Source: an uncultured Cellvibrionales bacterium (GTDB lineage Bacteria > Pseudomonadota > Gammaproteobacteria > Pseudomonadales > Porticoccaceae). From it: DNA of 64,000 nucleotides. The notes under the pieces are model-generated. The model saw only the letters and a list, made by a program, of their open reading frames with translations. It did not search any database and had not been told where the DNA came from. The stretch lies in the NCBI GenBank assembly GCA_913062605.1, contig CAJXWQ010000002.1, positions 4,761-68,760 on the forward strand, written 5' to 3'. Positions 35,952 through 56,630 of this stretch are shown piece after piece. A program made the translations under genes and the position numbers. Every line of letters begins with the position of its first letter. Position 1 is the first letter of the stretch.

Positions 35952-36028
35952 GGGCCCATAGCTCAGCTGGTTAGAGCAGTCGACTCATAATCGATTGGTC
36001 GAAGGTTCAAGTCCTTCTGGGCCCACCA
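35952..36028 (+). tRNA. tRNA with CAU anticodon, tRNA-Ile2 (lysidine)-like; intact cloverleaf
   Basis: GGGCCCA/TGGGCCC acceptor stem. D, anticodon (CTCATAA loop) and T arms all pair. CCA is encoded. Close resemblance to E. coli ileX as I recall it, including C4-G69/C5-G68. Same position downstream of rpoD. Confidence 0.9.
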
Positions 36029-36162
36029 TTTTCTCTTTATATTTCAATATGTTACCCGACAGCACCCTGCCGAAGCGCGCAAGCCTGCCGCGGTGGTGGT
36101 GTAGCTGGTGGTGACATCTACTTTTGCTTAACCACAAAGGAACGTTAAGAAAACTACAACCA

Positions 36163-36669
36163 CTATACTTCCACAGTACCAAAGCAAATAGCAGCATACT
36201 TCTCTTGTGCGATACTTTTTGTAGCTGCCCCGCCTATTTTCTTTATCTCTTCATCTATCAATGGCAATACTCTTAGCACCGTATTCTTTGCCTCACCTAA
36301 GCACTCTTTATTTCTCTCTGCAAAAGTATTGTCTTGCGCACCCTTACAACTACCAGCTAAATCTTTAATAAAGCTGGAATCATCTGATTTCATTTTCTTG
36401 TAGTTTTTCGAAAACCGGTAAGAACATTCAGAAGATTTAATCACCTCAGTCTCTGAATTTTGGCAATATCTCAGAAAATTAAAAGAATTGAACATTACAT
36501 TAAATCTTTCCTTGTCCACAGTGTAACCTGCATTATCAGCCAGCTTCACACACACACCAATCTTAGACAGCTCCTTTTGGAATTCTGCTTCTGTAAGGTC
36601 TTTTATCTGAGGAGTAGATCTTTCACAGCCAACAAGAACTATAAAAATTACAATTACAAACCTTTTCAT
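36163..36669 (-). CDS. Cysteine-rich putative lipoprotein
   Basis: Track ORF extends to 36747. ATG at 36669 gives MKRFVIVIFIVLVGC (lipobox LVGC). No family recognised. Confidence 0.6.
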   Translation of the reverse strand: MKRFVIVIFIVLVGCERSTPQIKDLTEAEFQKELSKIGVCVKLADNAGYTVDKERFNVMFNSFNFLRYCQNSETEVIKSSECSYRFSKNYKKMKSDDSSFIKDLAGSCKGAQDNTFAERNKECLGEAKNTVLRVLPLIDEEIKKIGGAATKSIAQEKYAAICFGTVEV

Positions 36670-36749
36670 TCTGCCTTCCATGTTGTTATTGGTAGTGTAA
36701 TTATACCAACAAATGAGGCATATATGCCTTAGACACAAATGCCTCATAG

Positions 36750-37004
36750 ATGAACTCTAGGAGGATGGATGAAAAAACTATATTTAAGGCTTTTGGTACT
36801 GTTTTAAAACGGTATAGAAAGGCTCAAAGCACCACGCAAGAGAAGCTGGCCTTAGATACCGGCTTCGATCGCACATTCATTTCCAGAATGGAACGAGGAT
36901 TAACCCAGCCTTCAGTAGCATCGCTTTTTCAGATAGCAAAATCTCTCAAAGTCCCGGCTTCAGATATGATTATTTCAGTTGAAGCAGAATTAAAATCTAA
37001 GTGA
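36750..37004 (+). CDS. XRE-family helix-turn-helix transcriptional regulator
   Basis: 84 aa. QEKLALDTGFDRTFISRMERGLTQPSVASLFQIAKSL is a classic HTH_3 pattern. Alternative start at 36765. Divergent from the lipoprotein gene. Confidence 0.8.
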   Translation: MNSRRMDEKTIFKAFGTVLKRYRKAQSTTQEKLALDTGFDRTFISRMERGLTQPSVASLFQIAKSLKVPASDMIISVEAELKSK

Positions 37005-37282
37005 AATACTCTTCTTGCAAGGAGAAGTGACCTAAGAAGGGGGGTTCCTAGACCAACTTAATATTCGTATAAATTAACCCTTTCCAGATTCCACGGGCTG
37101 CACTGGACCATACGGCGCACCGATTTTAGTGTAGGTTCTAGAAATTATCACCACACGATAGAACCCTTGTAATACCCTATTCAATCCCGCAACCCTAATG
37201 AGGCTAACATTTTTTATAGCAATCTGTTGAATTCGATGCCCCCCCGAAACCCAGGCCATATATGGCTTACAAATCAAAAAAA

Positions 37283-37332
37283 CAGTGACTCTAATCGATT
37301 GGTCGAAGGTTCAAGTCCTTCTGGGCCCACCA
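37283..37332 (+). repeat. Degenerate direct repeat of the tRNA 3' part (att-like scar B)
   Basis: CAGTGACTCTAATCGATTGGTCGAAGGTTCAAGTCCTTCTGGGCCCACCA. Identical to the tRNA from TAATCG to CCA, with two 1-nt gaps upstream of that. Confidence 0.9.
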
Positions 37333-37478
37333 TATTTTACGAATCAATAGCTTATAGTCGTTGGGTCGCCCTACTCTATAGGCAAATGAGTCGGCGACTC
37401 CCTCAGTTCTCCGTAAGTCCCCCAGAACATCTTGTCATAAAATCAAAATAAGTAAGTCTTCGCACAAGGCCATCAACA

Positions 37479-37912
37479 ATGGACACCGTAGACTCAAAAA
37501 AGCGCTCACAAATGATGCCCACCATAAAAGGCAAAGACACCAAGCTTGAGCTAACTATCCGCCGCCCCCTTTATCACCGAGGTTACTGATACCGAACCAA
37601 TGTCAGGTCGCTACCGGGATGCCCCGACCTTGTATTCAAAAAGTACCACTCCGTAATTTTTATAAACAGCTGTTTTGGCACGGCCACAAAAACTGCCACC
37701 TCGCCTACACCCCAAAAACCCGCACGGAATTTTGGGCATCAAAAATATCGGCAACAAAACAGTGGGACAAAAAATGTATCGAAGACCTTGAGTAACTTGA
37801 CTGGCGAGCTCTTTCCGTATGGGAGTGCTGCATTGAAGGCAAAGCCATCAAGAATCTACCAACACTCACAAACCTTATTGAAACATGGCTAAAAAGCAGC
37901 CAAGCCTCCTAG
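37479..37912 (+). pseudogene. vsr: Very-short-patch repair endonuclease (Vsr) pseudogene
   Basis: MDTVDSKKRSQMMPTIKGKDTKLELTIRRPLYHRGY, then TGA, then YRTNVRSLPGMPDLVFKKYHSVIFINSCF. A frameshift leads to WHGHKNCHLAYTPKTRTEFWASKISATKQWDKKCIEDLE, then TAA, then LDWRALSVWECC... No dcm partner is present. Confidence 0.8.
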
Positions 37913-37999
37913 ACACTCAGAGCAAATAAAAGCATTTATGTTGACAAAAATTGAGTAACACTAAAAGATAGTGATCAATTACTATCTTTTGGAGCTGGT

Positions 38000-38608
38000 A
38001 TGCAGCCGAAAAGCAAACACTTGCCCGCAGATGAGCGCCGCGCTGTTACTGTTGAAGCCGTCATTGAGCTCTCGGCAGAACAAAATCCTGGTGATATAAC
38101 TACGTCAGCCATTGCTAGGCACATGAACTTAACTCAAGGTGCACTATTTCGCCATTTCCCCAATAAGGAAGCTATTTGGCAGGCAGTGATGGAATGGGTT
38201 TCGGAACACTTGCTCGCACGGGTAGACAAGGCGATAAAGGCTGAAAAAACACAACTTGCAGCACTGGAAGCGGTGTTTGTAACCCATATCGAATTTGTCG
38301 CAGCGCACCCGGGTGTACCGCGTATGCTGTTTGGTGAATTACAGCGGGCCGAGGATACTGCTCCTAAACGCATGGCGCGAACTCTTCTACGGAAATACGG
38401 TGAACGACTGACTGTATTGATAGAGAAGGGCAAGGCCGAAGGTGAAATTGATTCCGCTGTTGATACTGTGGCTGCGGGAACATTGTTCATAGGCACCATT
38501 CAAGGCTTGGTTATGCAGTCATTGCTAGCCGGGGATACTGGAAGTATGCGAGATAAGGTGCCAAGGGTATTCACAATTTATCGCCGAGGTATCGAGCGCA
38601 GCATATGA
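38000..38608 (+). CDS. TetR/AcrR-family transcriptional regulator
   Basis: 202 aa. N-terminal HTH ITTSAIARHMNLTQGALFRHFPNKEAI. 4-nt overlap with the adaptor gene. Confidence 0.88.
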   Translation: MQPKSKHLPADERRAVTVEAVIELSAEQNPGDITTSAIARHMNLTQGALFRHFPNKEAIWQAVMEWVSEHLLARVDKAIKAEKTQLAALEAVFVTHIEFVAAHPGVPRMLFGELQRAEDTAPKRMARTLLRKYGERLTVLIEKGKAEGEIDSAVDTVAAGTLFIGTIQGLVMQSLLAGDTGSMRDKVPRVFTIYRRGIERSI

Positions 38609-40014
38609 AAAAAATCATTCAGAAGCCGCTTATTCTACCGCTGATTGTTGTCGTTGCCTTGGCGCTGGTTATTTTTAAGGTGAAATCCAAGCCTCCTATT
38701 GAGCATGACGAACTGCAATTTCCCATCAAAACAGTGGAAGTCATTACACTTAAGAAGATTGCCTTTCGCAGTCGTGCCATTGCTTACGGTAATGTAGAGC
38801 CCGCTGTTTTGTTGAAAGCCAAAACTGAAGTTAGCGGCAAGATTAGTTATATTCACCCTTCCTTGAAAAAAGGCGCAAGTCTGGCCAAAGGCACTGTAGT
38901 TTTAAGAATTGAGCCGACCACTTTTGAGTTTTCGCTGGATCAGAGCAAGGCGGGTCTGGCGAGTAGTCAATCGTCCTTAACACAACTGGAAGTTGAGGAA
39001 ACAAGCACTCGCCGCTCTGTCGAAATCGCAGAACATAATTTACAGATTGGTGAAAAAGAATTAGATCGTTTTCGCAGTATTTTAGAGAGACAGTTAATTT
39101 CCCGTTCAGCCGTTGATGCTGAAGAACAGAAAGTATTGCAACTACGTCAGCAGGTTGAAGATTTGCAGGGAAAACTGGCAGGCTTCAGCAGCCGTAAAGC
39201 TGCAATTCAGGCACAAATCAAGCAATCCAAAACTCAGCTAGCTCAAAGTAAAGATACTCTGGGGCGCGCCGAAATTCGTCTGCCTTTTGATGCCCGTATC
39301 GGCGAGGTTTTAGTAGAGAAAGGAGAGTACGCTGCCGTTGGTAGTGTGTTGTTTGAAGCATTAGGTACACAGGCCGTTGAAATTAATGCTCAGTTACCTG
39401 TGCGTCAATTTTACCCACTAATTATGGGTGGTGAAACACGCAGTATCAATTTGCAAAAGCCGGAAGACTTGCAGATTGAATTTTCAAAACTTCAATTGAA
39501 GGCAAACGTTAGGCTGGTCGGGAACGACGCTAGCATTGCAAAATGGCACGGTGAATTGCTACGTATTAGCGAGTCCATTGACCCTGAACGGGATACGATA
39601 GGCCTGGTCGTTGTCGTCAATAATCCCTATGAAAAGGTGATCCCGGGCAAACGTCCACCCTTGCTGAAAGGCATGTATGCAGCCGTTGAAATTAGTGCGC
39701 GCCCTAAAGCCATGTTGGTTTTACCGAGAAAGGCTATCCACCAGGGACGTGTCTACATTGCCAAAGCAAATAATCAGTTAGAAATACGTCCAGTGAATAT
39801 TCTTCACAAACAAGGGCAATTGGTAATTGTTGGCGGTGGAGCCAAAGAGGGTGAGAGAATTATTATCACCGATGTTATTCCTGTAATTGATGGCTTGCCA
39901 CTTAAACCAGTCATGGCAAGGGAATATGAAAAACAGCTGGCTAGAGACGCGCTTGGTGAAGAAAACATAAGCCCAAATAAAATCAATGGGGATAAAAAAG
40001 GTGCGACGGAATGA
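38605..40014 (+). CDS. RND efflux periplasmic adaptor (membrane fusion protein)
   Basis: 469 aa. N-terminal TM, coiled-coil hairpin segment and beta-barrel C-terminal part. Translationally coupled to the RND pump. Confidence 0.8.
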   Translation: MKKIIQKPLILPLIVVVALALVIFKVKSKPPIEHDELQFPIKTVEVITLKKIAFRSRAIAYGNVEPAVLLKAKTEVSGKISYIHPSLKKGASLAKGTVVLRIEPTTFEFSLDQSKAGLASSQSSLTQLEVEETSTRRSVEIAEHNLQIGEKELDRFRSILERQLISRSAVDAEEQKVLQLRQQVEDLQGKLAGFSSRKAAIQAQIKQSKTQLAQSKDTLGRAEIRLPFDARIGEVLVEKGEYAAVGSVLFEALGTQAVEINAQLPVRQFYPLIMGGETRSINLQKPEDLQIEFSKLQLKANVRLVGNDASIAKWHGELLRISESIDPERDTIGLVVVVNNPYEKVIPGKRPPLLKGMYAAVEISARPKAMLVLPRKAIHQGRVYIAKANNQLEIRPVNILHKQGQLVIVGGGAKEGERIIITDVIPVIDGLPLKPVMAREYEKQLARDALGEENISPNKINGDKKGATE

Positions 40015-43000
40015 TTCGCTATTTTGCCGCACATCCCACCATCAGTAATATCCTGATGATGGCAATTATCGCCATTGGTTTTAGTTCATTGAGTGGGCTT
40101 AATAAAGAATCCTTTCCACTACTTAAGCCCAGTAAAGTACAAGTCACGGTTGCCTACCCTGGAGCGGGTCCAGCCGATGTTGAAGATGGCATTTGTAATC
40201 CACTGGAAGATGCCACAGACGGCATCAGCTTTTTAAAAGAGCAGGAGTGTGATGCCCGTGACAATATCGCTATTTTCACATTGGAAATGCAGGAAGCGGG
40301 AAATATACGTGAGTTTACCGATGATATTAAAACTGAAATCGATGCGATCCAGAACTTCCCGGAGAACATCGAAGACCCGGTGATCAAACAATTAGGGCGA
40401 ATTAACCCGGTTGCCAATATTGCCATCACCTCAGATAAATTAACAGCCACTGAATTAAAAGAACTGGCGGAGTATTACCGCGACCGCCTGATCGCCATGC
40501 CACAAATTCCAATTGTGAGTATGGATGGTTTCTCCACGCATCAATTGCAGATATTGATCCGTCCCGATATTCAACAAAAATACCATCTTAGTGTCCAGGA
40601 TATTGCTAACTTAATTGCAGCCCAGGCATTGGAGCTGCCTGCAGGGACATTGGAAGCGACAGAAACCTCCTATCAAATTCGCTTTGATAATGTCAGAAAG
40701 ACTGCCGATGAATTGGCAAATCTTATTATTATCAATACGCCCAAAGGCGGCGAAATCAAACTGGGCGATCTTGCTGAAATTGAGAACAAATTCGAAAAGC
40801 CTGAAGAGCGCATCGAGCTAAACGGTAAACCGGCAGCACTACTCAAAATCAGTAAAAACTCTATTGATGACACACTAAAAGTTGCCGACGCACTGATTGA
40901 GTTTGTTGAAAAAGAAAACAAAATTCTGCCTGAAGGAACACGGCTAACTATTGTGAGTGATGCCTCCACATTAGTGCGTGACAGGTTAAAACTGCTGCTA
41001 ACCAACGGTTGGCAGGGGCTGATTCTGGCAACTTTAATGCTGCTGCTATTTTTTTCATGGCGTTACACTTTCTGGATTGCCTTAGGTCTGCCTATTTCAT
41101 TTTTAGGTGGGCTGGCCATGATGGTGGTGTTTGGCGTGAGTATCAATATGATCTCAATGGTCGCCTTACTGATGGCTATCGGTATTTTAATGGATGATGC
41201 CATCGTACTGTCTGAAAATATTGATAATGAATACCGTAAAGGAAAGACGCCATTGGAAGCGGCGGTTGATGGCACCAAAAAGGTTTTTCGTGGCGTCTTT
41301 TCTTCCTATCTCACGTCTGCTTTTTTATTTGGTAGCTTGTTGATGATGACAGGCGATCTAGGGCAGGTGTTGGGCGTACTGCCTGTCGTTTTACTGTCAG
41401 TGCTTACTATTAGCTTGATTGAGGCATTTCTGGTGTTACCACACCACCTCAAGCACTCACTGAAACATTCGAACCATAAAACACCACCAAAATGGCGGCA
41501 GCAATTTGAAGCTCTGTTTGATCGATTTCGCCATACCGTTGGTCGTGCCGCCACTCTCGCTATGCAGTTCCGCTATATCACTGTTGGCATAGCACTAGCT
41601 ATGTTGATTTTTTCTGTCGGTTTGGTTGCGACTGGAATCGTTAAATTCAAGGCCTTTCCAGATCTGGAAGGCAATAATCTGGAGGCCAGAATTCTACTGC
41701 CGCAAGGCACACCATTGGCCGAAACTGAAAGAGTGGTGGATACATTGCTCGCTTCTCTGGATGAAACCAATAAAACCCTTAGCCAAAATGAGACTGAAGA
41801 ACTGGTTAAAAATGTGCAGCTTTCATATGGCAAGCATGGCGATGTACCTGAGAATGGCACGCATCTGGCAACTCTTAGCATTGATTTGCTCAATACCGAA
41901 GAACGCAACACTAAAATGGATGAGCTCATCCAGCTTTGGAAACAGCAAACCGGGGTGCTACCCGACGTACTCAGTATTCAATACAAAGAACCCAAGGTTG
42001 GTCCAGCGGGACGCGCCATTCATATTCGCCTGAGTGGACAAGATATGGATCAATTGTCACGGGCATCCTGGGAAGTACAAAACTGGCTCAGAGGTTATAT
42101 TGGCGTCAACAATTTGCTGGATGATCTTCGCCCAGGTAAGCCTCAGTACAATATCAAGCTTAAGCCTGGGGCATTAGTCGCAGGCATCGATTCACGTAGT
42201 ATTGCCTCTCAACTCCGATCGGCTTACCTGGAAGTTAAAATCAGTGAGATCTACAAGGGTCGCGAAGCCTATGAAATCATTGCCAAACTGGATAGCCTGC
42301 CAGGTCGTGAGTTACACGATTTTGATAATTTCACGGTATTTTCAAAAACCGGAAAAGAAATTCCCTTAGGCAGTGTCGCCATCATTACCGAGGAGCGTGA
42401 ATTTTCCCGAATAGGGCATATCAACCATCAACGCACAGTTAATATATATGGTGATGTCGATGCCGGCATCGCCAACACATCCGAGATCATTACAAACTTT
42501 CAAAGTGACTTTATAAACACTTTGCAGGAACGCTATCCTGACATCACTTTTAAACTTAAAGGCGAGGTCGAGAACGGCGCGGAAACTAAATTATCGATAC
42601 TCTCAGGCTTCGGGCTTGGCTCTATTGGAGTATTTCTGTTGCTTAGTTTGCAATTTCGCAATTTCCGCGAACCGATTGTTGTAATGGTCAATATTCCTCT
42701 TGCCCTCATCGGCGCGATCTGGGGACATTTGATTATGGGCTTGGATTTCACTTTACCGAGCATGATCGGTTTCGTTTCCCTGGCAGGTATCGTCGTGAAT
42801 GATTCGATCCTGCTGGTCGAATTTGTAAAATATCGAGTGGAAGAGGGTATGGTGCTTCATGATGCTGCAAGGCAAGCAGTATATGATCGTTTTCGAGCCA
42901 TATTTCTTACTTCCGTCACTACCATTGCTGGCATGACACCCTTGCTGTTTGAAACCAGTACACAAGCATTAATTCTTGTCCCGTTGGTGACCAGCATTGT

Positions 43001-43118
43001 ATTTGGCATGCTGACATCCACAGTATTGATTATGCTGGTATTGCCTGCCATGTATGCAATTATGGAAGATATTGGTTTTGTGAAATTGTCGGCAGAACCA
43101 GAGCGGATAGCTGCATAG
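40011..43118 (+). CDS. RND-superfamily efflux permease (AcrB/AcrD/AcrF family)
   Basis: 1035 aa. Twofold TM1-loop-TM2-6 architecture and typical length. No outer-membrane factor gene is adjacent. Confidence 0.9.
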   Translation: MIRYFAAHPTISNILMMAIIAIGFSSLSGLNKESFPLLKPSKVQVTVAYPGAGPADVEDGICNPLEDATDGISFLKEQECDARDNIAIFTLEMQEAGNIREFTDDIKTEIDAIQNFPENIEDPVIKQLGRINPVANIAITSDKLTATELKELAEYYRDRLIAMPQIPIVSMDGFSTHQLQILIRPDIQQKYHLSVQDIANLIAAQALELPAGTLEATETSYQIRFDNVRKTADELANLIIINTPKGGEIKLGDLAEIENKFEKPEERIELNGKPAALLKISKNSIDDTLKVADALIEFVEKENKILPEGTRLTIVSDASTLVRDRLKLLLTNGWQGLILATLMLLLFFSWRYTFWIALGLPISFLGGLAMMVVFGVSINMISMVALLMAIGILMDDAIVLSENIDNEYRKGKTPLEAAVDGTKKVFRGVFSSYLTSAFLFGSLLMMTGDLGQVLGVLPVVLLSVLTISLIEAFLVLPHHLKHSLKHSNHKTPPKWRQQFEALFDRFRHTVGRAATLAMQFRYITVGIALAMLIFSVGLVATGIVKFKAFPDLEGNNLEARILLPQGTPLAETERVVDTLLASLDETNKTLSQNETEELVKNVQLSYGKHGDVPENGTHLATLSIDLLNTEERNTKMDELIQLWKQQTGVLPDVLSIQYKEPKVGPAGRAIHIRLSGQDMDQLSRASWEVQNWLRGYIGVNNLLDDLRPGKPQYNIKLKPGALVAGIDSRSIASQLRSAYLEVKISEIYKGREAYEIIAKLDSLPGRELHDFDNFTVFSKTGKEIPLGSVAIITEEREFSRIGHINHQRTVNIYGDVDAGIANTSEIITNFQSDFINTLQERYPDITFKLKGEVENGAETKLSILSGFGLGSIGVFLLLSLQFRNFREPIVVMVNIPLALIGAIWGHLIMGLDFTLPSMIGFVSLAGIVVNDSILLVEFVKYRVEEGMVLHDAARQAVYDRFRAIFLTSVTTIAGMTPLLFETSTQALILVPLVTSIVFGMLTSTVLIMLVLPAMYAIMEDIGFVKLSAEPERIAA

Positions 43119-43221
43119 TCAAAGCTTGTGAGAATTGAAATATATCCAGGTCAGCCAGCTACAGGTGATATACAACAAATACAATTCTCCATACCGCTTA
43201 TAATCAAATAGAAAGCACACC

Positions 43222-43457
43222 ATGAAAACTTATAAATTACTATCCTCCTAGGGGACAACGGTTCTGAGTGATACACCAGGCACGTTGGGAAGAAACAGTA
43301 AGGCTAGTATTTACGGTCGCCTCGATTGCTCAGCTGAAAATAGAGCTCTCTCGAAAGGTTATGACCAACACCGTGTATTTTTTGCCAATGAACAGAATGC
43401 CATACAAGCGGGATACCGACCTTGTGGAAGCTGTATGAGGAGCAGTACAAAAAATGA
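43222..43457 (+). pseudogene. Ada-type metal-binding-domain small protein, pseudogene (in-frame TAG plus frameshift)
   Basis: MKTYKLLSS, then TAG, then GTTVLSDTPGTLGRNSKASIYGRLDCSAENRALSKGYDQHRVFFANEQNAIQAGYRPCGSCM. The expected ending EEQYKK-stop is in another frame. Track ORF 43285-43776 runs through the tRNA repeat and is an artefact. Confidence 0.6.
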
Positions 43458-43510
43458 AAGTCTGGCCCAGAGGGTGAAGGGAGTTACCCTTGGAGAAAGT
43501 TACCAGACTG

Positions 43511-43857
43511 AAAGCCCCTCCGAGTCCACCAAGTTCGGTTTTCGTTCGGTATTCCGCATACAACTTTCCATACGGTTCATAACCGAATGGCCTGTCGCCA
43601 CTGACTTCCGACGCCAACAAGTTCGGTCATGGTTCGGTCTATTTCCAGCCCACTCCAGCCGCCTCAAAAACCCCTTACAATTCTTCCACTTAGGACAGCC
43701 AAATCAGCAGTCCGTGCTTCTCATAATCGATTGGTCGAAGGTTCAAGTCCTTCTGGGCCCACCATTTCTCTTATAATTCATAGGCTTGCCATAAGCTGAG
43801 CATCCGAGTCTATGGGCAGAGCGGGTGACCTTTTTTTGTGCCTGTCGTCTGGCGACG
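43511..43857 (+). repeat. ~345-bp island-junction repeat unit C (contains tRNA 3' fragment 43720-43764)
   Basis: Collinear with unit D (50773-51116): about 210 bp upstream with GTTCGG/CCGAAC motifs, the 45-bp tRNA core, and about 93 bp downstream (TTTCTCTTATAATTCATAGGCTTGC...GGCGACG). Confidence 0.9.
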
Positions 43858-43939
43858 TGTCGACAGGTGCGTCAATTGTTTGCTCCCTTTTCTTTTTGTG
43901 CTACCTATGGGCTACTTTCAGACAGCTTCAAATCCTGCC

Positions 43940-44011
43940 TCGTAACGCCCAACTAAGGGGCTAAAAAAAGCCCGGCTTTTGACAGCCCATGCATTAAGCG
44001 GCTTGTTATGT
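43940..44011 (-). repeat. attC-like imperfect palindrome 1 (downstream of GNAT gene)
   Basis: Reverse strand: ACATAAC starts 4 nt after the GNAT stop and the element ends in GTTACGA. 72 bp. Shares TAACGCC...AAGGGGC arm sequence with element 2. Confidence 0.5.
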
Positions 44012-44552: not shown

Positions 44553-44595
44553 CCTTTTAACTCAATCTCATTTTTGTGCCATGAAGTACGCAGAC

Positions 44596-44656: not shown

Positions 44657-44661
44657 ATGTG

Positions 44662-45237: not shown

Positions 45238-45240
45238 GAA

Positions 45241-47987: not shown

Positions 47988-48025
47988 CATGTGATATAGT
48001 TGACTCCAAGATTGGAGAATAATGT

Positions 48026-48352: not shown

Positions 48353-48364
48353 ACGAGGTATACC

Positions 48365-48910: not shown

Positions 48911-48920
48911 GTCACGCTCT

Positions 48921-49751
48921 ATGGCACTGTTAATTGGTATGGTGATTGGCTTGGTACTTGGTCTGACCGGTGCGGGGGGATCTGTGTTTGCTGTACCACT
49001 GCTTATCCTGCTGCTGTCACTACCCGTCAGTGATGCCATAGGTATCGCTCTGGGCGCTGTCGCCATCAGCGCACTCTACGGCACTATCAATAACTGGCGC
49101 TACAAAAGTATTTTATGGATTCCTTCCATCATTCTGGGGACGACTGGCGTCTTGTTCGCCCCTCTGGGTAAATTGATCGGTAATCAGCTATCTCCCTCAC
49201 TACTGCTAGTAGGCTTTAACGGTTTGGCCATTATGGTTGCACTGCACATGTGGCGACAAGCATCCAAACACCCGGAGCAAACCAGCATTGTTCGTTCTGG
49301 CCATATGACACCAGAAAATTTTGTGGGCCCTGCATGCCGTATGAGTACCACTGGGCAGTTCGAGTGGCGACCTCGCTGCGTGGGTAGTCTGGCAGCTGGA
49401 GGAATGATCGTGGGGTTACTAACCGGTTTATTTGGCGTGGGGGGTGGCTTTTTAATTGTGCCATTACTGATATTCCTCAGCCAGGTCTCCATGCAGCAGG
49501 CAGTGGGAACCTCTCTGCTGATCATCACCGCGGTTGCCACGTCAGGGTTTTTAAGCTTTACCGCCACTGCACCCAATGTGAATTGGGCCCTTCTAGGGCT
49601 TATCGCCACTGGAGGAGTTGTGGGTATGTTTATTGGCCGCCTAGTGAGTCACAAGATCGCCAGCCCGCAATTGCAAAAGATATTTTCCATCAGCCTAATT
49701 GCCATTGCCCTTATAACCCTAGCCCATCAATGGACAGCCAGCCCACCTTAA
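48921..49751 (+). CDS. TauE/SafE-family sulfite/anion exporter
   Basis: 276 aa. Two repeats of a GxGGG-containing 4-TM unit (LTGAGGSVF, LFGVGGGFL). Confidence 0.8.
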   Translation: MALLIGMVIGLVLGLTGAGGSVFAVPLLILLLSLPVSDAIGIALGAVAISALYGTINNWRYKSILWIPSIILGTTGVLFAPLGKLIGNQLSPSLLLVGFNGLAIMVALHMWRQASKHPEQTSIVRSGHMTPENFVGPACRMSTTGQFEWRPRCVGSLAAGGMIVGLLTGLFGVGGGFLIVPLLIFLSQVSMQQAVGTSLLIITAVATSGFLSFTATAPNVNWALLGLIATGGVVGMFIGRLVSHKIASPQLQKIFSISLIAIALITLAHQWTASPP

Positions 49752-49768
49752 ATGATCGGGAGCCCGCT

Positions 49769-50467
49769 ATGATTTTTAGACAACTATTCGATATCCAATC
49801 ATCTACCTACACTTACTTGATAGCCGATGAGGATACAGGTGAAGCCGCCCTGATCGACCCCGTCATCGATAAGACTGATGACTACCTGATGTTACTGATG
49901 CAACTAGAGCTTAAGTTAATTGTTGCTGCCGACACCCATACCCACGCTGATCACATCACTGCATTGGGCCTGTTACGGGAGCATACAGGCTGCCAGACAA
50001 TGGTGGGGCAGCAATCTATTGCGGAATGTGTGTCCAGTAAATTTTCAGCAGGTGATCATATTGTGGTTGGCAAACTTAGCCTGGAAATTCTGTACACGCC
50101 GGGGCATACGGATGACTCCTACAGCTTTTATCTGTCATCCGACGGTCGGTCAATGTTGTTTACTGGTGATACCTTACTGATTCGTGGTACCGGGCGTACA
50201 GATTTTCAAAGTGGTGATCCCCGACAACAATACGACAGCTTATTTGGAAGTTTACTGACATTCACCGGTGATACGCTGGTATATCCAGGCCATGATTATA
50301 AAGGCTGGTCAGTGAGCACCATTGATGAAGAAAGAACTCACAACCCGCGACTGCAAGTGACCAATAGCGATGCTTATGCCGAACTAATGGATGGTTTGAT
50401 GTTGCCCAACCCTAAATTGATGGATGTGGCCGTGCCGGCCAATCAGAAGTGTGGAAATACTCGGTAG
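49769..50467 (+). CDS. Metallo-beta-lactamase-fold persulfide (sulfur) dioxygenase, ETHE1/Blh-like
   Basis: Track ORF starts at 49583 inside the previous gene. ATG at 49769 (MIFRQLFDIQSSTYTYLI) is the usual start. THTHADH motif is present. Confidence 0.85.
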   Translation: MIFRQLFDIQSSTYTYLIADEDTGEAALIDPVIDKTDDYLMLLMQLELKLIVAADTHTHADHITALGLLREHTGCQTMVGQQSIAECVSSKFSAGDHIVVGKLSLEILYTPGHTDDSYSFYLSSDGRSMLFTGDTLLIRGTGRTDFQSGDPRQQYDSLFGSLLTFTGDTLVYPGHDYKGWSVSTIDEERTHNPRLQVTNSDAYAELMDGLMLPNPKLMDVAVPANQKCGNTR

Positions 50468-50772: not shown

Positions 50773-51116
50773 CAAAGCCCTAACCTACCAGGTTCGGTTT
50801 TCGTTCGGTGTTCTACATACAGCTTCCCATGCAGCTCATAACCGAATGACCGATTAAAACCAACTTCTGACTCCAGCAAGTTCGGCCATGGTTCGGCTAG
50901 CGGTCGACACACACCAGCAACCTCAAAAACTCCTTACACTTCTTTCCCTTACGACGCCCAAAACCAACAGTGCGAGGTACTCATAATCGATTGGTCGAAG
51001 GTTCAAGTCCTTCTGGGCCCACCATTTCTCTTATAATTCATAGGCTTGCTATAAGCTGAGCATCCGACTCTATGGGCAGAGCGGGTGGCCTTTTTTGTGC
51101 CTGTCGTTTGGCGACG
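50773..51116 (+). repeat. ~345-bp island-junction repeat unit D (contains tRNA 3' fragment 50979-51024)
   Basis: Collinear with unit C. Same GTTCGG motif layout and same 3' flank. Confidence 0.9.
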
Positions 51117-51170
51117 CCAGCACCCGCCGGCTCTAAAGCATCAAGAATACTCTCTGAACAACCACTACAG

Positions 51171-51216
51171 ACTCATAATCGGCAGGTCCCCAGTTCAAGT
51201 CTGGGAAGGCCCACCA
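51171..51216 (+). repeat. 3' fragment of a different tRNA(CAU) allele
   Basis: ACTCATAATCGGCAGGTCCCCAGTTCAAGTCTGGGAAGGCCCACCA. It has its own T arm (CCCAG/CTGGG) and the acceptor 3' strand AAGGCCC. No 5' half is present. Confidence 0.8.
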
Positions 51217-51249: not shown

Positions 51250-51885
51250 CTTTGCCCGCATATTGCGGCGAACAAATACACTTACACAAACCGCCAGAAC
51301 ATGCACGATAATTGCAGTCGAAAATAACCTGTACCGAGAGCCTGAGAAAGCCTAGAAGCGCTAATATCTATAGCTGAGGATGTTGGATTGGTGTGCAACA
51401 ACGCCCACAACCGGCTCCTGAGTCGAACCTGAGGTCAACGGCTAGTATTAGTTCCAACACCGAATATCTTTCTGGACAACTTCTTTAGGCAAGATTCACG
51501 CCTGAGCAACCAATCTATATGGATACATATAGAGCGACAGGTTTAACCACCCCCTTAAATTTTCGACAAGTGATTAATCATCACCCATTTTTCTACTTCA
51601 TATCAAATGCTCTCTCAGATAATAAGCCCTAGCTGAAGCGGTTTTGACAACAGCATCTTTGCCCTTGCCAACATTAACTGATAGCGATTAGAATCGCTGA
51701 CTTAGGGCAAAAAATCAGTGAGCCTAATACTCAAATCGTATAGTTAATTGCAGATCGCCCTTGACCAGCTCCCAGGAACGACTTGCTGAGCCACTGAAAA
51801 AGAATGGTATCGGAACTACCTTCAGCAAGTAACAAAACAAGGAGCATTTAGCACACGATGAGAAGCCACTGGGGGAAAACGTTTA

Positions 51886-52683
51886 ATGAGAGGCGCAATG
51901 AATGGATATCGCTTAGGTGCTACTTTTATTAAATGTATTAGTGCTGAGGTATTGGGTTCTGCTGCGGTAAACCACCCATATTTGCAAGCAATGCGTGAGG
52001 GTGATTTCCCCAATATTGACTTGGCGTTTAAGGATTTTGCATTTCAGTACGGTTTATATAGCACTATGTTTACCCGTTATGTATCAGCAGTGATTAAGAA
52101 CCTCAGTAATACTGAACACAAGAAAGTTCTTCTGGCCAATCTAGCCGAAGAACAAGGCGATACTCACGATGTTGATCTACCTCCCGGTGTGCTGGCCAGC
52201 GTAGTCGGACAACCACACGCAAGCTTATATCGCCGCTTTCAAGAAGCTCTGGGGATTGATGCCGATTACTGCAAAACTGCACAACAGTGCCAAACAAGCC
52301 TGTTGTGGGGTCAACAGTTTTTACAGCTGTGTAAGATGAACGAGTGTGTCGGTGTGGGCGCTATCGGTATTGGTACCGAACTTGTCGTTTCCCCTATTTA
52401 TGATCAGATTCTTGAAGGGCTTAAAACACATAGCAACCTGACGATGACACAACGTGTGTTCTTTGATTTGCACAGCCAATGTGATGAAGAGCATGCTGCC
52501 CAAATGCTATTGATTACCGAAGATTTGGCTCAGGATCGCACTGCTTGTGAACAAATTGAATATGGCGCTAGAATGGCTATCAACATGCGAGTTGCCTTTT
52601 GGGACAAAATGCTAGAACGTGCCCATAACTTTCCCGCCTCCACCCTCCCTGCTATTGAGAAGTTATCTGCCGTTGGATACTGA
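51886..52683 (+). CDS. Heme-oxygenase-like fold, iron-containing redox enzyme family protein (putative diiron oxidase/oxygenase)
   Basis: 265 aa, all-helical pattern. NLAEEQGD, PHASLYRRF, GTELVV and FFDLHSQCDEEHA match the E/H/E/H-D-H ligand layout of the PF14518-type family. A GGGGGA RBS lies 9 nt upstream. Confidence 0.75.
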   Translation: MRGAMNGYRLGATFIKCISAEVLGSAAVNHPYLQAMREGDFPNIDLAFKDFAFQYGLYSTMFTRYVSAVIKNLSNTEHKKVLLANLAEEQGDTHDVDLPPGVLASVVGQPHASLYRRFQEALGIDADYCKTAQQCQTSLLWGQQFLQLCKMNECVGVGAIGIGTELVVSPIYDQILEGLKTHSNLTMTQRVFFDLHSQCDEEHAAQMLLITEDLAQDRTACEQIEYGARMAINMRVAFWDKMLERAHNFPASTLPAIEKLSAVGY

Positions 52684-53419
52684 AAAAGTCTATAACGACA
52701 ATGCCGAGAAGTGGTTGCGCTTAGCACCGAGCTCCCTGTCTGATTTTACTGCGCGCCCTTTGGTGTTTGAGACCTGTGGTGAGTTAAAAGCTCGCTCAGT
52801 GTTAGACATTGGCTGCGGCGAAGGCTATTGCGCACGGGAGCTGAAGCGTCGTGGCGCTGGCGATTACCTGGGCGTGGATTTGTCTGAAGAAATGATTAAA
52901 GCTGCTCAGGCGCAGGAAGTAAAAGATCAATATGGAATCGAGTACTGTGCCTGTAATGTGGTGGAGTTTAGTCCTGACCGGCAATTTGACCTTTGCATTG
53001 CGGTGTTCTTGTTTAACTATCTGCGGGTAGAAGAAATGCAGCGCGTGTTTTCGATGGTATATGAGGCATTGCAGCCCCAGGGCCAGTTTATTTTTAGTGT
53101 ACCCCATCCTTTCTTTCCCTTTGTACGTTCTGATCAGACGGCACCCTTTTACTTTGCCTCCACAGGAAAGAACTACTTTGCAGATGTGGATCAACAATTT
53201 GAGGGAGAAATTTGGAAGCGGAGTGGAGAGCCTTTACACGTGCAGTGCGTACACAAAACCTTTGGTGATTATTTTGATAACTTACGCCTTGCAGGCTTTA
53301 CCAACATGCCCGAAATGAAAGAGCTAACCGTTACACCCGAGCTGGTCGCAATGGACGAGGCCTTCTTCTCACCACTGTTAAATGAGCCGTTACATCTGCT
53401 GTTTAAAATTTCCAAATAA
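52673..53419 (+). CDS. Class I SAM-dependent methyltransferase
   Basis: VLDIGCGEGYCARELKRRG motif I and DLCIAVFLFNYL. The start is uncertain: there is no ATG, and the track uses 52619. TTG at 52673 overlaps the upstream stop by 11 nt. Confidence 0.75.
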   Translation: MDTEKVYNDNAEKWLRLAPSSLSDFTARPLVFETCGELKARSVLDIGCGEGYCARELKRRGAGDYLGVDLSEEMIKAAQAQEVKDQYGIEYCACNVVEFSPDRQFDLCIAVFLFNYLRVEEMQRVFSMVYEALQPQGQFIFSVPHPFFPFVRSDQTAPFYFASTGKNYFADVDQQFEGEIWKRSGEPLHVQCVHKTFGDYFDNLRLAGFTNMPEMKELTVTPELVAMDEAFFSPLLNEPLHLLFKISK

Positions 53420-53444
53420 TGACGGCTGCCCCTAGGTCAACACA

Positions 53445-56186
53445 ATGCCAACGCCCAACTCGTTGATCGAACGTCTCTTTCATTACGAAGAAAATAACCC
53501 CGCTCATGAGGCAGTTGTAACCCCAACGTTTACATTGTCTTATGCCCAACTGGCCCAACTTGTAAGGGCGCAGGTAAAAGCATTTAACAATGCAGGCATT
53601 TCGGGCAACGCTATTATCGGGATCAAGTGCGCCGATGATATACAACACTTGGTGGTGTGCCTCGCCACTACTCATATTGGCGCTACATCGTGCACAATTC
53701 CCACGTACGAGGCTGCTCAAACACAAAATTCCATCATCAGTCATTGCGGCGTTACCCATACAGTTGATGAGAAGATAGCTGTAGACCCAACATCTATAGA
53801 AAAAAGGCCTCAGGAAAGCAGGCCATTAGAAAACAACGCCAATTCAATAGTAGTAGAGACACCTGCATCTGAGGCGCAGCTTTTGTTTTCCACCTCAGGT
53901 ACAACGGGTGAACCTAAACTGGTGATTCATCATGACAGCGATCTGGTAGCGCAAGCCCATCGCCACATTGTTTCTAAACAGGAACGCTTTGCCTGCCTGG
54001 CACCGATGGAGCACAACTTTGCCAAGCGTCACCGCCTCTACTGTGTAGCAGCAGGAGCGACCAATGTATTTCTTAGCGCGGAGCCGGAATCACTGGTCAC
54101 CCAAAGCCAGTCGCTAAACGTTAACGTCATGCATGTATCTGCCTTTCAGGCACAAGAATTATTAGCGATGCCTGACATCAGTAAGCTATCCAATATCCGG
54201 TTGAAGCTTGGTGGCTCGCATGTTCCCTTATCACTCCGACAGCAACTGCGAGACACCATCACCAATAATCTGCAAGCCGGCTACGGCACCACTGAAACAG
54301 GTGCAATTGCATTTACTGATCCAAATGATTTGAACGCAGGTGAAAGCGTCGGCCAATCATTGCCCGGAATAGAAATACGCGTAGTCACACCGGAAAGAAA
54401 ACCTCTTGGCATTGGTAAGCGTGGAGAATTAGCCGTTCGTTGTGAAGGTATGTTCCGCGGTTACCTCGGCAAATCCGACCTGGCTGCTACCCGGCTTGGG
54501 GATGGCTGGTTCCATACGGGTGACATCGGCTATCTGGATAGCCAACAGCGTATTCATCTGTGTGGCCGATCCGACGACATGTTTGTGTTCAACAGCATGA
54601 ACATTTACCCCCAGGATATTGAGTCTGAGATTCGTCAATATCCGGGGATCATCGATGCTGTAGTGCTTCCTAAAAAATCATCTGTACACGGTAACATTCC
54701 AGTGGCCCTAGTTGTTTTCGCCAAGCATGTGAAACAGCATCTACCCGCATTAAAAAAGTTTGTACAGAAGCGGGTTGGCGTTCGCAGCCCACGACAGTAC
54801 ATTATCGTTGATGAAATCCCGAAAAATCCCTCCGGCAAAATTTCTCGTCTAAAAGCAATGAACCTGCCAGCAAAGAGCGGCCAAATTCGTAGCGACATTA
54901 TTGATATGCTTGATCCACGCATAACAAAGCACTTGAAACCCTCGCTAATCACTGCCTTTAAAAATGGTGATCAAGATATAACTTTCCGTGAACTCAGAAT
55001 GGATTCACTGGCTCGCATGGATTTTTTGGTCGCACTAGAAACAAATTATGACACCGTCATTACACTACGAGAGTTTGCTGGGTTTCGCTACCTTGGTAAC
55101 ATTGCCGCCCATGTTTTATCGCCATCATCGCAACACGGGCTGGAAGAAGACTCTACCCTTCCAACAAGCAGTTCAAGCGACTCAAGCCACATAGCAATCC
55201 AGGCAGATTCCCTTCCCTACGTAGTGCGCTTTTTTCAACGTATCTTTAGTTATTGCCACACAGCTGCACAATTGAATAGAGCGTTCTCTACACTGGAACA
55301 CCGCTTAACTCCAATGGAAGTAGAGTGCCTATATGACTGGCACCTTAACAGCCAACTTATCCCAACAGAGGCAGCAACAAAATTCCAAACAGCGGCTTCC
55401 AACTGGCTAAAAGAAATGAAAAACTTGATGCTGAACAGTGGAAAACAGGCGCCAGAACCATTTTTTTCACGCAGGGTTGCACCTAATGCCACTCTTTTTT
55501 CTGGCGCGGGATTACCAACTGACAAGACGCTATTGATCTGCTTTCCACCGGGGGGTATTCGTCACCTGACGATACCCAATGCCACGTTAATGCAACACAC
55601 AAACTCAGCGCGTTTTGACCTATTAATTATCTCGGATCCTTTTAAGGAAGGTTATCGACTTGGTACTCCTCCATTTGGTAAATACCAGAGTGAAGTTATT
55701 GAGCAGCTAGCCAACCGAAATTTGATTAGCAAATATAGCAGTATTCGCACCTTGGGGTTCAGTGCCGGAGCCTACCCAGCACTGATAGCAGGCTATCTTT
55801 TGAAGGCAGAAATGGCTCTCAGCATAAGTGGCCGCTTCCATCGTAAAAAGAACATCCTCAAAAATTTGGATAAAGTGATTACAACTTGGAAAATGGTGCG
55901 CAAGGGGCGCTGTTCACGAGTGCTGATAAGCTACTCCACAGACCATTCTCGCGACCAAAAATATGCCAGAATCATTGGCAAAATCTCTGGTGGCAGTAAG
56001 GTTGCTATCGAAATTAAAAATGAAAAAACCAGACATTTAATTCTTCAGCGGTTGCTAGAACGTGGTGAATTAGCAGCATTCCTAGCGCGCACTATTTTTG
56101 CGGAAATGGATGACAAGCTAATTGCCACCGAACGGACAAACGTAATCATGTCCTTCCCTGCCGCCCAAATACGGCCGTCTGAGTAG
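53445..56186 (+). CDS. Adenylate-forming enzyme (ANL) - carrier protein - unknown linker - alpha/beta-hydrolase-like fusion protein
   Basis: 913 aa. Adenylation motifs FSTSGTTGEPK, GYGTTETG, WFHTGDIGYLD and PKNPSGKISR. Carrier motif ELRMDSLARMDFLVALE. C-terminal region with GFSAG nucleophile elbow. Confidence 0.8.
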   Translation: MPTPNSLIERLFHYEENNPAHEAVVTPTFTLSYAQLAQLVRAQVKAFNNAGISGNAIIGIKCADDIQHLVVCLATTHIGATSCTIPTYEAAQTQNSIISHCGVTHTVDEKIAVDPTSIEKRPQESRPLENNANSIVVETPASEAQLLFSTSGTTGEPKLVIHHDSDLVAQAHRHIVSKQERFACLAPMEHNFAKRHRLYCVAAGATNVFLSAEPESLVTQSQSLNVNVMHVSAFQAQELLAMPDISKLSNIRLKLGGSHVPLSLRQQLRDTITNNLQAGYGTTETGAIAFTDPNDLNAGESVGQSLPGIEIRVVTPERKPLGIGKRGELAVRCEGMFRGYLGKSDLAATRLGDGWFHTGDIGYLDSQQRIHLCGRSDDMFVFNSMNIYPQDIESEIRQYPGIIDAVVLPKKSSVHGNIPVALVVFAKHVKQHLPALKKFVQKRVGVRSPRQYIIVDEIPKNPSGKISRLKAMNLPAKSGQIRSDIIDMLDPRITKHLKPSLITAFKNGDQDITFRELRMDSLARMDFLVALETNYDTVITLREFAGFRYLGNIAAHVLSPSSQHGLEEDSTLPTSSSSDSSHIAIQADSLPYVVRFFQRIFSYCHTAAQLNRAFSTLEHRLTPMEVECLYDWHLNSQLIPTEAATKFQTAASNWLKEMKNLMLNSGKQAPEPFFSRRVAPNATLFSGAGLPTDKTLLICFPPGGIRHLTIPNATLMQHTNSARFDLLIISDPFKEGYRLGTPPFGKYQSEVIEQLANRNLISKYSSIRTLGFSAGAYPALIAGYLLKAEMALSISGRFHRKKNILKNLDKVITTWKMVRKGRCSRVLISYSTDHSRDQKYARIIGKISGGSKVAIEIKNEKTRHLILQRLLERGELAAFLARTIFAEMDDKLIATERTNVIMSFPAAQIRPSE

Positions 56187-56553
56187 CACGAACAGTCGAC
56201 TGAAACCATCGATAAAGGTGTATCTATCCCACTTGCGTACTGAAGCCATGGCTCTGTATCTATCCATCCGTTTAATTTAGCTTAATCCATAAATGGCTGC
56301 CCACATGTGACAAGGGCAGCTAAAACCCACAGCACAAGCTTTCGACATCACAGGTTGATACGGCCTCTCTAGCGGGATTGCCCCCCAGTCTCCCCCCTCA
56401 AGTACGCTATCGAGGGCTAAACAAGATGTATACAAGGCGAGACAGGCTTTTAAGATAAGTTACTAGTAGCAAGGGCTAGTGAGCTTGAGCGCTACGATAA
56501 AGAACGAGGTTTACCCCGTTTCGAGTAGCAAGGTATAAAAAGTAGTTCCAAGA

Positions 56554-56630
56554 GAGCCCTTAGCTCAGTTGGCTAGAGCGCTCGACTCATAATCGATTGG
56601 TCGAAGGTTCAAGTCCTTCTGGGCCCACCA
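56554..56630 (+). tRNA. Second tRNA(CAU)-like copy, chimeric: divergent 5' third, 3' 50 nt identical to the first copy; acceptor stem mispaired
   Basis: GAGCCCTTAGCTCAGTTGGCTAGAGCGCTCGACTCATAATCG... With the 3' strand TGGGCCC this gives A2.C71 and T7.T66 mismatches plus C27.T43. It may be a pseudo-tRNA. Confidence 0.6.

Follow-up and report, generated by a model that had tools for sequence, protein, structure and literature searches.

A tRNA-Ile2-type gene beside rpoD and its repeated 3' ends in a variable region of a Porticoccus-related genome

Results

Organization of the locus and copies of the tRNA 3' end

The sequence analyzed here is a 64-kb stretch (the window) of contig CAJXWQ010000002.1 from an uncultured Cellvibrionales bacterium, which was examined with Pfam profiles, Rfam, ARAGORN, repeat finding and blastn/tblastn. 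Next to rpoD, the conserved left anchor of the locus, lies a tRNA gene (c1) whose 3' end recurs in direct orientation over the following 20 kb, and the recurring copies separate blocks of cargo genes among which no recombinase gene was detected (Table 1). The host is close to Porticoccus, with 85% protein identity of RpoD to the metagenome-assembled genome (MAG) NORP89 (L001; L numbers denote the loci used for comparison), and members of the cytochrome b561 protein cluster carry the names Porticoccus or Porticoccaceae. The order rpsU-yqeY-dnaG-rpoD-tRNA is kept in L001, L101, L104 and L106, and synteny with relatives was used to place the conserved core genes of the window up to dnaG. The c1 gene starts 156 nt past rpoD and looks functional, as its predicted fold retains the acceptor, anticodon and T stems. 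We take it to be of the tRNA-Ile2 type from its position and its similarity to E. coli ileX. L104 and many metagenome contigs have a c1-identical tRNA after rpoD.

ARAGORN found full-length tRNA(CAU) genes in two places, 35952-36028 (c1) and 56554-56630 (c5). The repeat search returned a 45-47-nt tRNA 3' segment in direct orientation at 35982-36028, 37286-37332, 43718-43764, 50978-51024 and 56584-56630. Together, these searches confirm the five direct copies, ending at 36028, 37332, 43764, 51024 and 56630, that a first-pass annotation made from the sequence had listed. The repeated core spans the anticodon loop to the CCA end, and every fragment begins at the same point of the anticodon loop. 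Over this core c3, c4 and c5 are each identical to c1 (45/45).

The list of five was incomplete, since a sixth and divergent copy, c6, lies at 51172-51216. The repeat search placed it at 51170-51216. It is followed by a 10-bp terminator-like hairpin at 51221-51244, the top-scoring hairpin of its kind within 43400-57000. The c6 sequence is identical (45/45) to the 3' half of the intact working tRNA of L101 and one base off the tRNA of L022; beyond the terminator, the sequence is continuous with block 4, as in L101. A chance tRNA-like match was considered for c6 and rejected, given the identity to the L101 tRNA 3' half and the presence of the terminator. The copy is probably the displaced 3' end of a different tRNA-Ile2 allele, with its terminator still attached.

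The last copy, c5, had been listed without recognition that it is a hybrid with a mismatched 5' half. Its 3' 45 nt are those of c1, and its 5' half differs from c1 at 6 of 32 aligned positions. The acceptor stem contains two mismatches (A2.C71 and U7.U66), the Rfam score is 17 bits under that of c1 (57.1 vs 74.1), and the minimum-energy fold is not a cloverleaf. A 5' half identical to that of c5 was absent from all fetched loci and viral contigs, and the nearest in our data is that of Nitrincola with 3 mismatches. Likewise, the sequence flanking c5 (56187-56756) has no homologue in any fetched locus, and the 40-nt core has no exact match among the viral contigs. The c5 gene is best read as an attL-type hybrid in which a foreign or old 5' half is joined to the common core. 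Two tRNA alleles and a hybrid tRNA at one locus show that such hotspots mix DNA of lineages that differ in this tRNA. Judged by eye, a promoter-like sequence (TTTACC-18-TATAAA) lies upstream of c5, and a motif resembling the start of the P' arm described below (TTCAATATTCATAGG) is found 40 nt past its CCA end.

attP-like junction units

The c3 and c4 copies are embedded in an attP-like unit of ~330 nt composed of an upstream (P) arm, the core and a downstream (P') arm. Upstream of the two cores, ~190-240 nt are common with 80% identity. That the 3' flanks of the copies are related had been proposed earlier; this holds well for c3 and c4 (93% identity over ~90 nt), and the flanks of c1 and c2 are related more weakly. 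Otherwise c1, c2, c5 and c6 have only the core in common. The upstream arm of c2 is unrelated to the c3 and c4 arms, and no GTTCGG motifs were found upstream of c2.

Such motifs are a regular feature of the P arms. Counted from the first base of the core, GTTCGG is found at -187/-176 and -99/-88 in c3 and at -188/-177 and -100/-89 in c4, and the identical phasing precedes identical core fragments in the metagenome contigs L084 and L089, where the spacers have diverged. The two motifs of a pair are spaced 11 nt apart in all four junctions, giving the unit pattern GTTCGG-N5-GTTCGG-N76-GTTCGG-N5-GTTCGG-N83-CTCATAATCG. The window averages 0.44 GTTCGG per kb, and the extended motif GTTCGGT was observed 18 times against 4.6 expected. 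Placed one helical turn apart and at a fixed distance from the core, these pairs resemble the arm-type sites of tyrosine integrases and may have served as such. The ~90-nt P' segment is related across c3, c4, L084 and L089; weaker similarity extends to the sequence after c2 and to L093. Where elements lie in tandem, an attP-like unit as seen at c3 and c4 is formed by the core together with the right arm of the preceding element and the left arm of the following one. L084 and L089 also share an identical stretch of ~190 nt that ends ~200 nt before the core, upstream of the P arms, after which they diverge. This stretch adjoins an IS256-family transposase gene in L084 and may be the end of an insertion sequence (IS).

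The c4 and c6 copies are separated by only 147 nt. Decayed orthologues of the c4 P arm are present in L101 (8025-8171) and L112 (4013-4119). Behind the P'-type remnant of c3 lies a 63-nt segment (43886-43948) with 89-91% identity (blastn) to L091, L096, L097 and L099, where it comes right behind the terminator of the intact tRNA; past the segment, gene content varies among these relatives. The segment has no Rfam match. A small-RNA identity of the junction units was also rejected, as Rfam yields only the tRNA.

Search for recombinases

No tyrosine or serine recombinase, transposase or excisionase was found by Pfam among the main open reading frames (ORFs) between 36029 and 56553, and the integrases of L001, L086 and L090 gave nothing in the window at E < 0.1 (tblastn). 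Six-frame translations of at least 45 aa in the junction regions, mostly read by eye rather than searched with profiles, showed no recognizable recombinase or excisionase remnant. The three approaches concur with the first-pass annotation that the array carries no ORF of these kinds. The sizeable ORFs elsewhere in the window did not include a recombinase either (Pfam), and islets 1 to 3 contain no conjugation domains (Pfam).

Integrase-bearing, integrase-less and unoccupied states in relatives

A scan of metagenome contigs with a 40-nt core returned 20 contigs, of which 17 contain the full tRNA and three only fragments; at least 12 of the 17 show rpoD upstream. These contigs were chosen by an exact match to the c1-type core, and the c1 allele is therefore over-represented among them. 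A scan of genome contigs with rpoD gave mostly distant Gammaproteobacteria among the matches listed, with L001 alone being close.

Integrases are found at the same tRNA in several relatives. L001 has an 8.8-kb island bounded by a 47-nt repeat from the same start position, and its 436-aa integrase (Arm-DNA-bind_3 and Phage_integrase) adjoins the distal repeat; the island also contains DUF3987 and DUF5681 genes. In L086, a 413-aa integrase precedes an identical core fragment by 274 nt, and beyond the fragment come YdjM and, later, the right-flank genes. A P4-type integrase directly follows the tRNA in L090 and L092. The L001 and L086 integrases, the sole pair directly compared, share 22% identity. 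Three different tyrosine integrases evidently occupy this tRNA in relatives, which marks it as a hypervariable integration hotspot. These integrase-bearing islands, bounded by the 45-47-nt repeat, also bear out the earlier proposal that the repeats are att-type cores rather than parts of a segmental duplication. The ORF following the tRNA in L093 was considered as a further integrase and rejected as it encodes a coiled-coil protein.

Nearly every contig has a different gene beside the tRNA; among these are an MFS transporter, a GspE-like ATPase, an ATP-grasp protein, an acyltransferase, a P-type ATPase and YdjM, as read from the translations without a domain check. A terminator hairpin directly follows the tRNA in L091 and L096-L100. 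Unoccupied states are represented by L100, with the order tRNA, terminator, YdjM, and by L102 and L104, with rpoD, the tRNA (exact c1), terminator, the block 4 trio and then YdjM. The first-pass annotation had predicted an empty site with the tRNA directly before the cytochrome b gene, and this arrangement was not seen in any relative.

In L101, the order is rpoD, tRNA, terminator, YdjM, a P arm and c1-type core that have both decayed (8025-8217), and the block 4 trio, with the pseudouridine synthase and RF-1-domain genes further on. L106 carries a c6-type tRNA, a glutaredoxin gene and then the block 4 cluster, and the order of YdjM and the block 4 cluster differs between L101 and L104. The idea that block 4 was inserted in this genome alone was rejected, as the block is near the tRNA in L101, L102, L104 and L106. 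It rather is a widely shared resident cassette of the island in several lineages. The L101 counterpart of the segment from c4 to c6 is a single relic core with c1-type sequence, a c6-type flank, 3 substitutions and mutated arm motifs. This is what would be expected after a c4-by-c6 deletion followed by decay.

An integrase-less islet is also found in L007, a Pseudomonadales MAG, where 4.2 kb (12929-17133) after its own rpoD-linked tRNA are bounded by perfect 45-nt repeats from the same tRNA position and encode an esterase, a cytochrome P460-like protein and an amidohydrolase.

The closest relatives, L112 and L113 (89-92% nucleotide identity, via cytochrome b561), lack block 4 at this place. 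In L113, the aldolase gene is 315 nt from cytochrome b561, window positions 47891-56756 are missing and no core is present. L112 has YdjM before cytochrome b561 and a P-arm relic without a core after an RND gene. Homology to both (about 90% nt) resumes at 56757-56772, 126 nt past c5, so the outer limits first given for the array were about right. In L099, the aldolase gene is 4 kb from the tRNA. The content between the tRNA and the pseudouridine synthase and RF-1 genes differs among L086, L094, L099, L100, L101, L104, L106, L112, L113 and the window. Variability bounded by repeats had been expected in relatives; the content of the locus indeed varies, but L113 diverges at 47890, away from any core. 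Everything between the tRNA and cytochrome b561 evidently is variable, and not every difference falls at a core.

Relatedness also shifts along the locus. The rpoD-tRNA spacer and the tRNA (35796-36028) are 91-92% identical to the clade of L085, L091 and L094 and 68% identical to L101, and dnaG and rpoD are about equally distant from the c1-type clade and L101. This shift suggests a recombination breakpoint at the rpoD end.

Cargo blocks and decayed border genes

The segments between the five copies first listed measure 1.3, 6.4, 7.3 and 5.6 kb. The earlier division into four cargo blocks stands in that their gene contents differ, and fails in treating the blocks as four equivalent islets, block 4 being a resident cassette. 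Islet 1, where the lipoprotein-like N-terminus of one product was read directly from the translation, has no homology to any fetched relative.

Islet 2 has decayed genes at both borders, as already noted in the first-pass annotation. The vsr gene is interrupted by a stop and a frameshift, and its Pfam match required a translation stitched over both. The Ada-like gene starts at 43222 and is then broken by the stop in its tenth codon. An ORF at 43285-43776 was considered as a genuine Ada-like gene that runs into the tRNA fragment, and was rejected since only its first ~50 residues match Ada_Zn_binding. Between these genes lies a module (37910-43118, 5.2 kb) of a TetR regulator, a membrane-fusion protein (MFP) and a resistance-nodulation-division (RND) pump. 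It is 83-86% identical at the nucleotide level to L107-L111, which have other genomic contexts; these loci include a Porticoccaceae MAG, and one of them adjoins IS91 fragments. The homology stops exactly at the RND stop codon. The module proteins are 82-91% identical in Methyloprofundus, Emcibacter, Thioploca-like and other distant taxa, which is far closer than rpoD predicts. The islets themselves are mosaics.

Block 3 encodes GNAT, DUF4405, a di-haem cytochrome c peroxidase, an EncFtn-like protein, a class-I aldolase, an ArsR-like regulator, rhodanese/YgaP, TauE and a metallo-beta-lactamase-fold protein. The genes at 44662-46605 on the minus strand are those for the DUF4405 membrane protein, the di-haem cytochrome c peroxidase and the 95-aa EncFtn-like ferritin; a gene for an encapsulin shell is absent from their vicinity. 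The genes at 48026-50467 (ArsR/BigR-like regulator, rhodanese/YgaP, TauE exporter and metallo-beta-lactamase-fold protein) are missing from the closest relative L113, and look like a sulfide or sulfite detoxification operon.

The block 4 trio is widespread in marine Gammaproteobacteria, with >1000 homologues at E <= 1e-20. Its haem-oxygenase-like protein is an iron enzyme and its methyltransferase is of the S-adenosylmethionine (SAM) type. The AMP-binding/peptidyl carrier protein (PCP) proteins, of ~900 aa, have a long C-terminal region without a Pfam match.

Outside the array, 845-23880 is a polysaccharide/O-antigen-type cluster with glycosyltransferases, a Wzx-like flippase, Wzz, GDP-mannose dehydratase and epimerases, and is followed downstream by uvrA and then a Wzy_C (O-antigen ligase-like) gene. 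Clusters of this type are usually another variable region. A MetA-pathway phenol-degradation-family protein is also encoded outside the array (Pfam).

Table 1. Features of the rpoD-linked tRNA locus and its flanks, in window coordinates.
Feature	Position	Strand	Basis or remark
rpoD	33972..35795	+	all sigma-70 regions (Pfam)
c1, tRNA-Ile2-type (CAU), functional-looking; last 45 nt = att core	35952..36028	+	ARAGORN; Rfam 74.1 bits
Islet 1, 1.3 kb	36029..37287	.	two genes
Islet 1: 194-aa protein, lipoprotein-like N-terminus	36163-36747	-	no Pfam family
Islet 1: XRE-type HTH protein	36750-37004	+	Pfam HTH_3, 1.4e-12
c2, tRNA 3'-half fragment	37288..37332	+	one base short in anticodon-loop part (CTC-TAAT)
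Islet 2, 6.4 kb, weak P'-like left end	37333..43719	.	Pfam; translation; motif positions
Islet 2: vsr pseudogene	~37479-37890		Pfam Vsr, E = 2.4e-19
Islet 2: TetR	38000-38608		Pfam
Islet 2: membrane-fusion protein	38605-40014		Pfam
Islet 2: RND pump	40011-43118		Pfam
Islet 2: Ada-like pseudogene	43222-43460		Ada_Zn_binding, 1.3e-5; in-frame stop at codon 10
P arm of c3 junction with GTTCGG repeats (part of islet 2)	43528..43719		motif positions
c3, tRNA 3'-half fragment, centre of attP-like junction	43720..43764	+	45/45 to c1
P'-type arm remnant after c3, ~90-120 nt	43765..43885	+	93% to post-c4 sequence; related to L084/L089 flanks
63-nt segment (CTTTTCTTTTTGTGCTACCTAT..GCTACTTTCAGACAGCTTCAAATCC)	43886..43948	+	122 nt past c3
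Block 3 cargo	44016..50467	.	Pfam; translation
Block 3: class-I fructose-bisphosphate aldolase	46779-47795	-	92% nt to L113; 85% protein in L099
Block 3: ArsR-like regulator	48026-48352		identified by reading translation only
P arm of c4 junction with GTTCGG pairs (-188/-177, -100/-89)	50787..50979	+	motif positions
c4, tRNA 3'-half fragment	50980..51024	+	45/45 to c1
Putative emptied element shell: P' arm (~90 nt) + 55 nt	51025..51171	+	nothing else between c4 and c6
c6, divergent sixth copy, probable 3' half of another tRNA-Ile2 allele	51172..51216	+	72% identity to core
Block 4	51599..56186	+	Pfam; 85% nt to L101 8259-12759
Block 4: haem-oxygenase-like protein	51886-52683	+	Pfam
Block 4: methyltransferase	52619-53419	+	Pfam
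Block 4: AMP-binding/PCP protein, 913 aa	53445-56186	+	Pfam
c5, full-length hybrid tRNA-like gene	56554..56630	+	ARAGORN; Rfam 57.1 bits
Right flank, conserved	56757..59071	.	89-92% nt to L112, L113; also common to L086, L101
Right flank: cytochrome b561	56851-57588	.	Pfam
Right flank: pseudouridine synthase	57914-58627	-	Pfam
Right flank: RF-1-domain protein	58652-59071	-	Pfam

Discussion

Serial integration at the rpoD-linked tRNA

The region from about 36.0 to 56.8 kb is probably a flexible island seeded by the rpoD-linked tRNA-Ile2-type gene, where serial site-specific integration was followed by loss of the integrases and by reshuffling. We give this explanation a probability of roughly 0.7. 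Elements encoding tyrosine integrases with arm-binding domains would recombine their attP, which holds a copy of the segment from the anticodon loop to CCA, with that segment of the tRNA gene. Each integration would rebuild the tRNA and displace the older 3' half, with everything behind it, further downstream, and successive integrations would leave the series c1 to c4. The junctions between neighbouring elements would then consist of a P arm with phased GTTCGG, the core and a P' arm. Later, the integrase and backbone genes would be deleted, border genes such as vsr and the Ada-like gene would decay, and one element would be reduced to the 147-nt shell between c4 and c6, so that cargo islets between att sites remain. 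The haem-oxygenase-like cluster, the aldolase gene and the RND module would have been moved by other recombination as well, and core-to-core recombination together with homologous exchange would account for further reshuffling. Homologous exchange is included because the spacer and tRNA are 91-92% identical to the c1-type clade and 68% to L101, from which dnaG and rpoD are equidistant. The order of events, the removal of the integrases by deletion and the derivation of c5 and c6 are inferred from these patterns.

The first-pass annotation had offered repeated insertion followed by integrase loss as one explanation. The part that stands is an integration hotspot in which no integrase is left; the part that does not extend to the whole array concerns blocks 3 and 4, with their resident genes, and the module, which has its own distribution. 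These exceptions are among several observations that weigh against serial integration as a complete account. Blocks 3 and 4 hold genes that are resident in the same region of relatives, the boundaries of the TetR-MFP-RND module are sharp and unrelated to att sites, and the L113 breakpoint at 47890 is not at a core. Remnants of integrases, excisionases or element backbones were not found in any islet, and integrase loss through deletion is therefore something we infer rather than see. All six GTTCGG-type P arms (two in the window and one each in L084, L089, L101 and L112) are without an adjoining tyrosine integrase. Furthermore, simple accretion predicts that the 5' half of c1 matches the distal c6 allele, but c1 is a coherent c1-type tRNA. 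Together with the 91-92% versus 68% identity of the spacer, this means that homologous replacement must also be invoked. A single ordered history for c1, c4, c6 and L101 was sought, and every scenario called for one or more additional homologous replacements or core-to-core deletions. Finally, the window may derive from a metagenome-assembled contig.

Alternative explanations

The role of homologous recombination could be larger still, if the array formed mostly by swapping island stretches with old att scars between related strains through the rpoD and pseudouridine synthase flanks, with few or no integrations in this lineage. The sharp change in relatedness at the rpoD end (91-92% vs 68% in spacer and tRNA) and the two tRNA alleles in a single locus agree with this, as does the L113 breakpoint (47890) away from any core; moreover, L101 shares the att relics that lie before the haem-oxygenase-like cluster, and these so predate the split. 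Such swapping leaves the origin of the cores and arms unexplained, however, and site-specific integration somewhere is still required. Homologous recombination thus complements serial integration and does not replace it, and as the chief source of the array we consider it possible, with the odds against it. A different view, of which the first-pass annotation had offered the version in trans, is that the islets are still mobile, with an integrase encoded elsewhere or on an incoming element acting on the P arm-core-P' sites to excise, reorder or co-transfer them, either in cis in the manner of cis-mobilizable elements (CIMEs) or in trans like an integron. The mobilization of CIMEs is documented in other bacteria (PMC5704250). 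In the window, the cores of c3, c4 and c5 are intact (45/45 to c1), whereas the L101 relic has 3 substitutions and mutated arm motifs. The GTTCGG positions are exact in four junctions from three sources despite diverged spacers, and these junctions (c3, c4, L084 and L089) have no linked integrase. The order of YdjM and the haem-oxygenase-like cluster is also permuted between L101 and L104, as expected for segments moving between cores. Core identity is nevertheless weak evidence, since the core has only 45 nt and belongs to a tRNA conserved throughout the clade. No identical islet occurs in a second position or genome among the data searched, and islets 1 to 3 have no counterpart in the fetched loci except the aldolase gene and the RND module, neither of which is att-bounded elsewhere. 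Continued mobility seems unlikely to us. Rather less likely again is a more specific form, in which the ~330-nt unit would be the recombination site of a family of integrase-less cassettes in Porticoccaceae, moved at the rpoD-linked tRNA by an integrase encoded elsewhere. If true, the unit would belong to an integron-like cassette system built on a tRNA, which, to judge from c5 and c6, could take up resident genes and even halves of tRNAs.

Two further explanations were considered. The tandem order could be an assembly artefact, with alternative islets from strains living together joined through the tRNA core that they have in common. Many metagenome contigs do end at this tRNA, and proteins identical to those of the window are recorded on two contigs only, the close relatives in the clusters being Porticoccus or Porticoccaceae MAGs. 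Nonetheless, the exact repeat is just 45 nt long and unique sequence lies to either side of every junction. The units of c3 and c4 are 7-20% divergent, assembly would have required reads across each junction, and the relic at the c4 junction is shared with L101, an independent assembly. An artefact is accordingly very improbable. Segmental duplication of a tRNA-containing stretch without att recombination is harder still to credit and is contradicted by the alignments. The ~330 nt shared by c3 and c4 do extend beyond the core, but c1, c2, c5 and c6 have no common sequence outside it, all fragments begin at one point of the anticodon loop, and the cargo between the copies is unrelated. The c3 and c4 flanks have diverged like independent att arms (P 80%, P' 93%, motifs conserved), and the unit is found in other genomes.

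Significance

Seen as serial integration with later loss and exchange, the array is a clear but ordinary case of tRNA-linked island growth and decay. In a marine Porticoccus lineage of uncultured type, one essential tRNA gene beside rpoD seeds a variable region of ~20 kb, in which genes for efflux, sulfur and peroxide stress functions and a small adenylation-enzyme cluster are among the cargo. Stages of decay can be viewed side by side, from the integrase-bearing islands of relatives to integrase-less islets, a 147-nt emptied shell and eroded relics. The phased arm motifs provide a handle for finding the partner integrase. Current understanding is unchanged by this locus, which offers a clean example that can help in the annotation of flexible islands at tRNA genes of marine Gammaproteobacteria.

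Comparison with known systems

The array resembles integron cassette arrays in being an ordered set of promoter-poor cargo units that end in a recombination site, with the recombinase outside the units. However, its sites are tRNA 3' halves with arm-type repeats instead of attC hairpins, and its blocks contain several genes with their own regulators. IntI, attI and Pc, the integron features looked for, were all absent (Pfam; Rfam at a permissive threshold over 35000-58000). The permissive Rfam search of this interval gave only tRNA matches, plus below-threshold Plastid-ycf2 on the tRNA copies.

The likeness to P4-type and other tyrosine-integrase islands at tRNA genes, of the sublocation from the anticodon loop to the 3' end, is closer. 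The array shares with them the direct repeats of the tRNA 3' end, arm-type repeats near the core, which would be bound by the integrase, and integrases at the same tRNA in relatives; the attB site is used by integrase-carrying elements and is unoccupied in L100, L102 and L104. Unlike these islands, the array contains no integrase gene or remnant that we could find, and thus lacks an integrase inside the element.

CIMEs are decayed elements that retain attL and attR (PMC5704250). As in the CIMEs and tandem accretions related to ICESt1/ICESt3 of Streptococcus thermophilus and in the tRNA-Lys islands of S. agalactiae, the array consists of segments bounded by attL/attR-type sites without integration or transfer genes, and islets 1 to 3 have kept their att sites in the absence of both gene classes. 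Decay is visible in the border pseudogenes vsr and Ada-like, but no remnant of a backbone gene ties it to an ancestral integrative and conjugative element (ICE) or integrative and mobilizable element (IME). The array differs from CIMEs in its host, a marine gammaproteobacterium, in its target, tRNA-Ile2 beside rpoD, and in lacking an ICE or IME backbone remnant; mobilization is here only a possibility. Further features of the array are a displaced core from a second tRNA allele and a hybrid tRNA of full length.

In the marine islands of Prochlorococcus, partial tRNAs stand between tandem integrations, and degenerate remnants occur scattered through the island (bioRxiv 10.1101/2020.12.28.424599). 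The array shares with these tycheposon-seeded islands the position next to a tRNA, the partial-tRNA separators, the degenerate remnants and the variable cassettes. It differs in lineage and in lacking the hallmark genes (integrase, replication module), and it is the pattern of island remnants alone that matches. Given the additive flexible islands described for marine bacteria and the variability seen here, we take the locus to be an additive flexible genomic island. Its relatives carry different cassettes at the same position.

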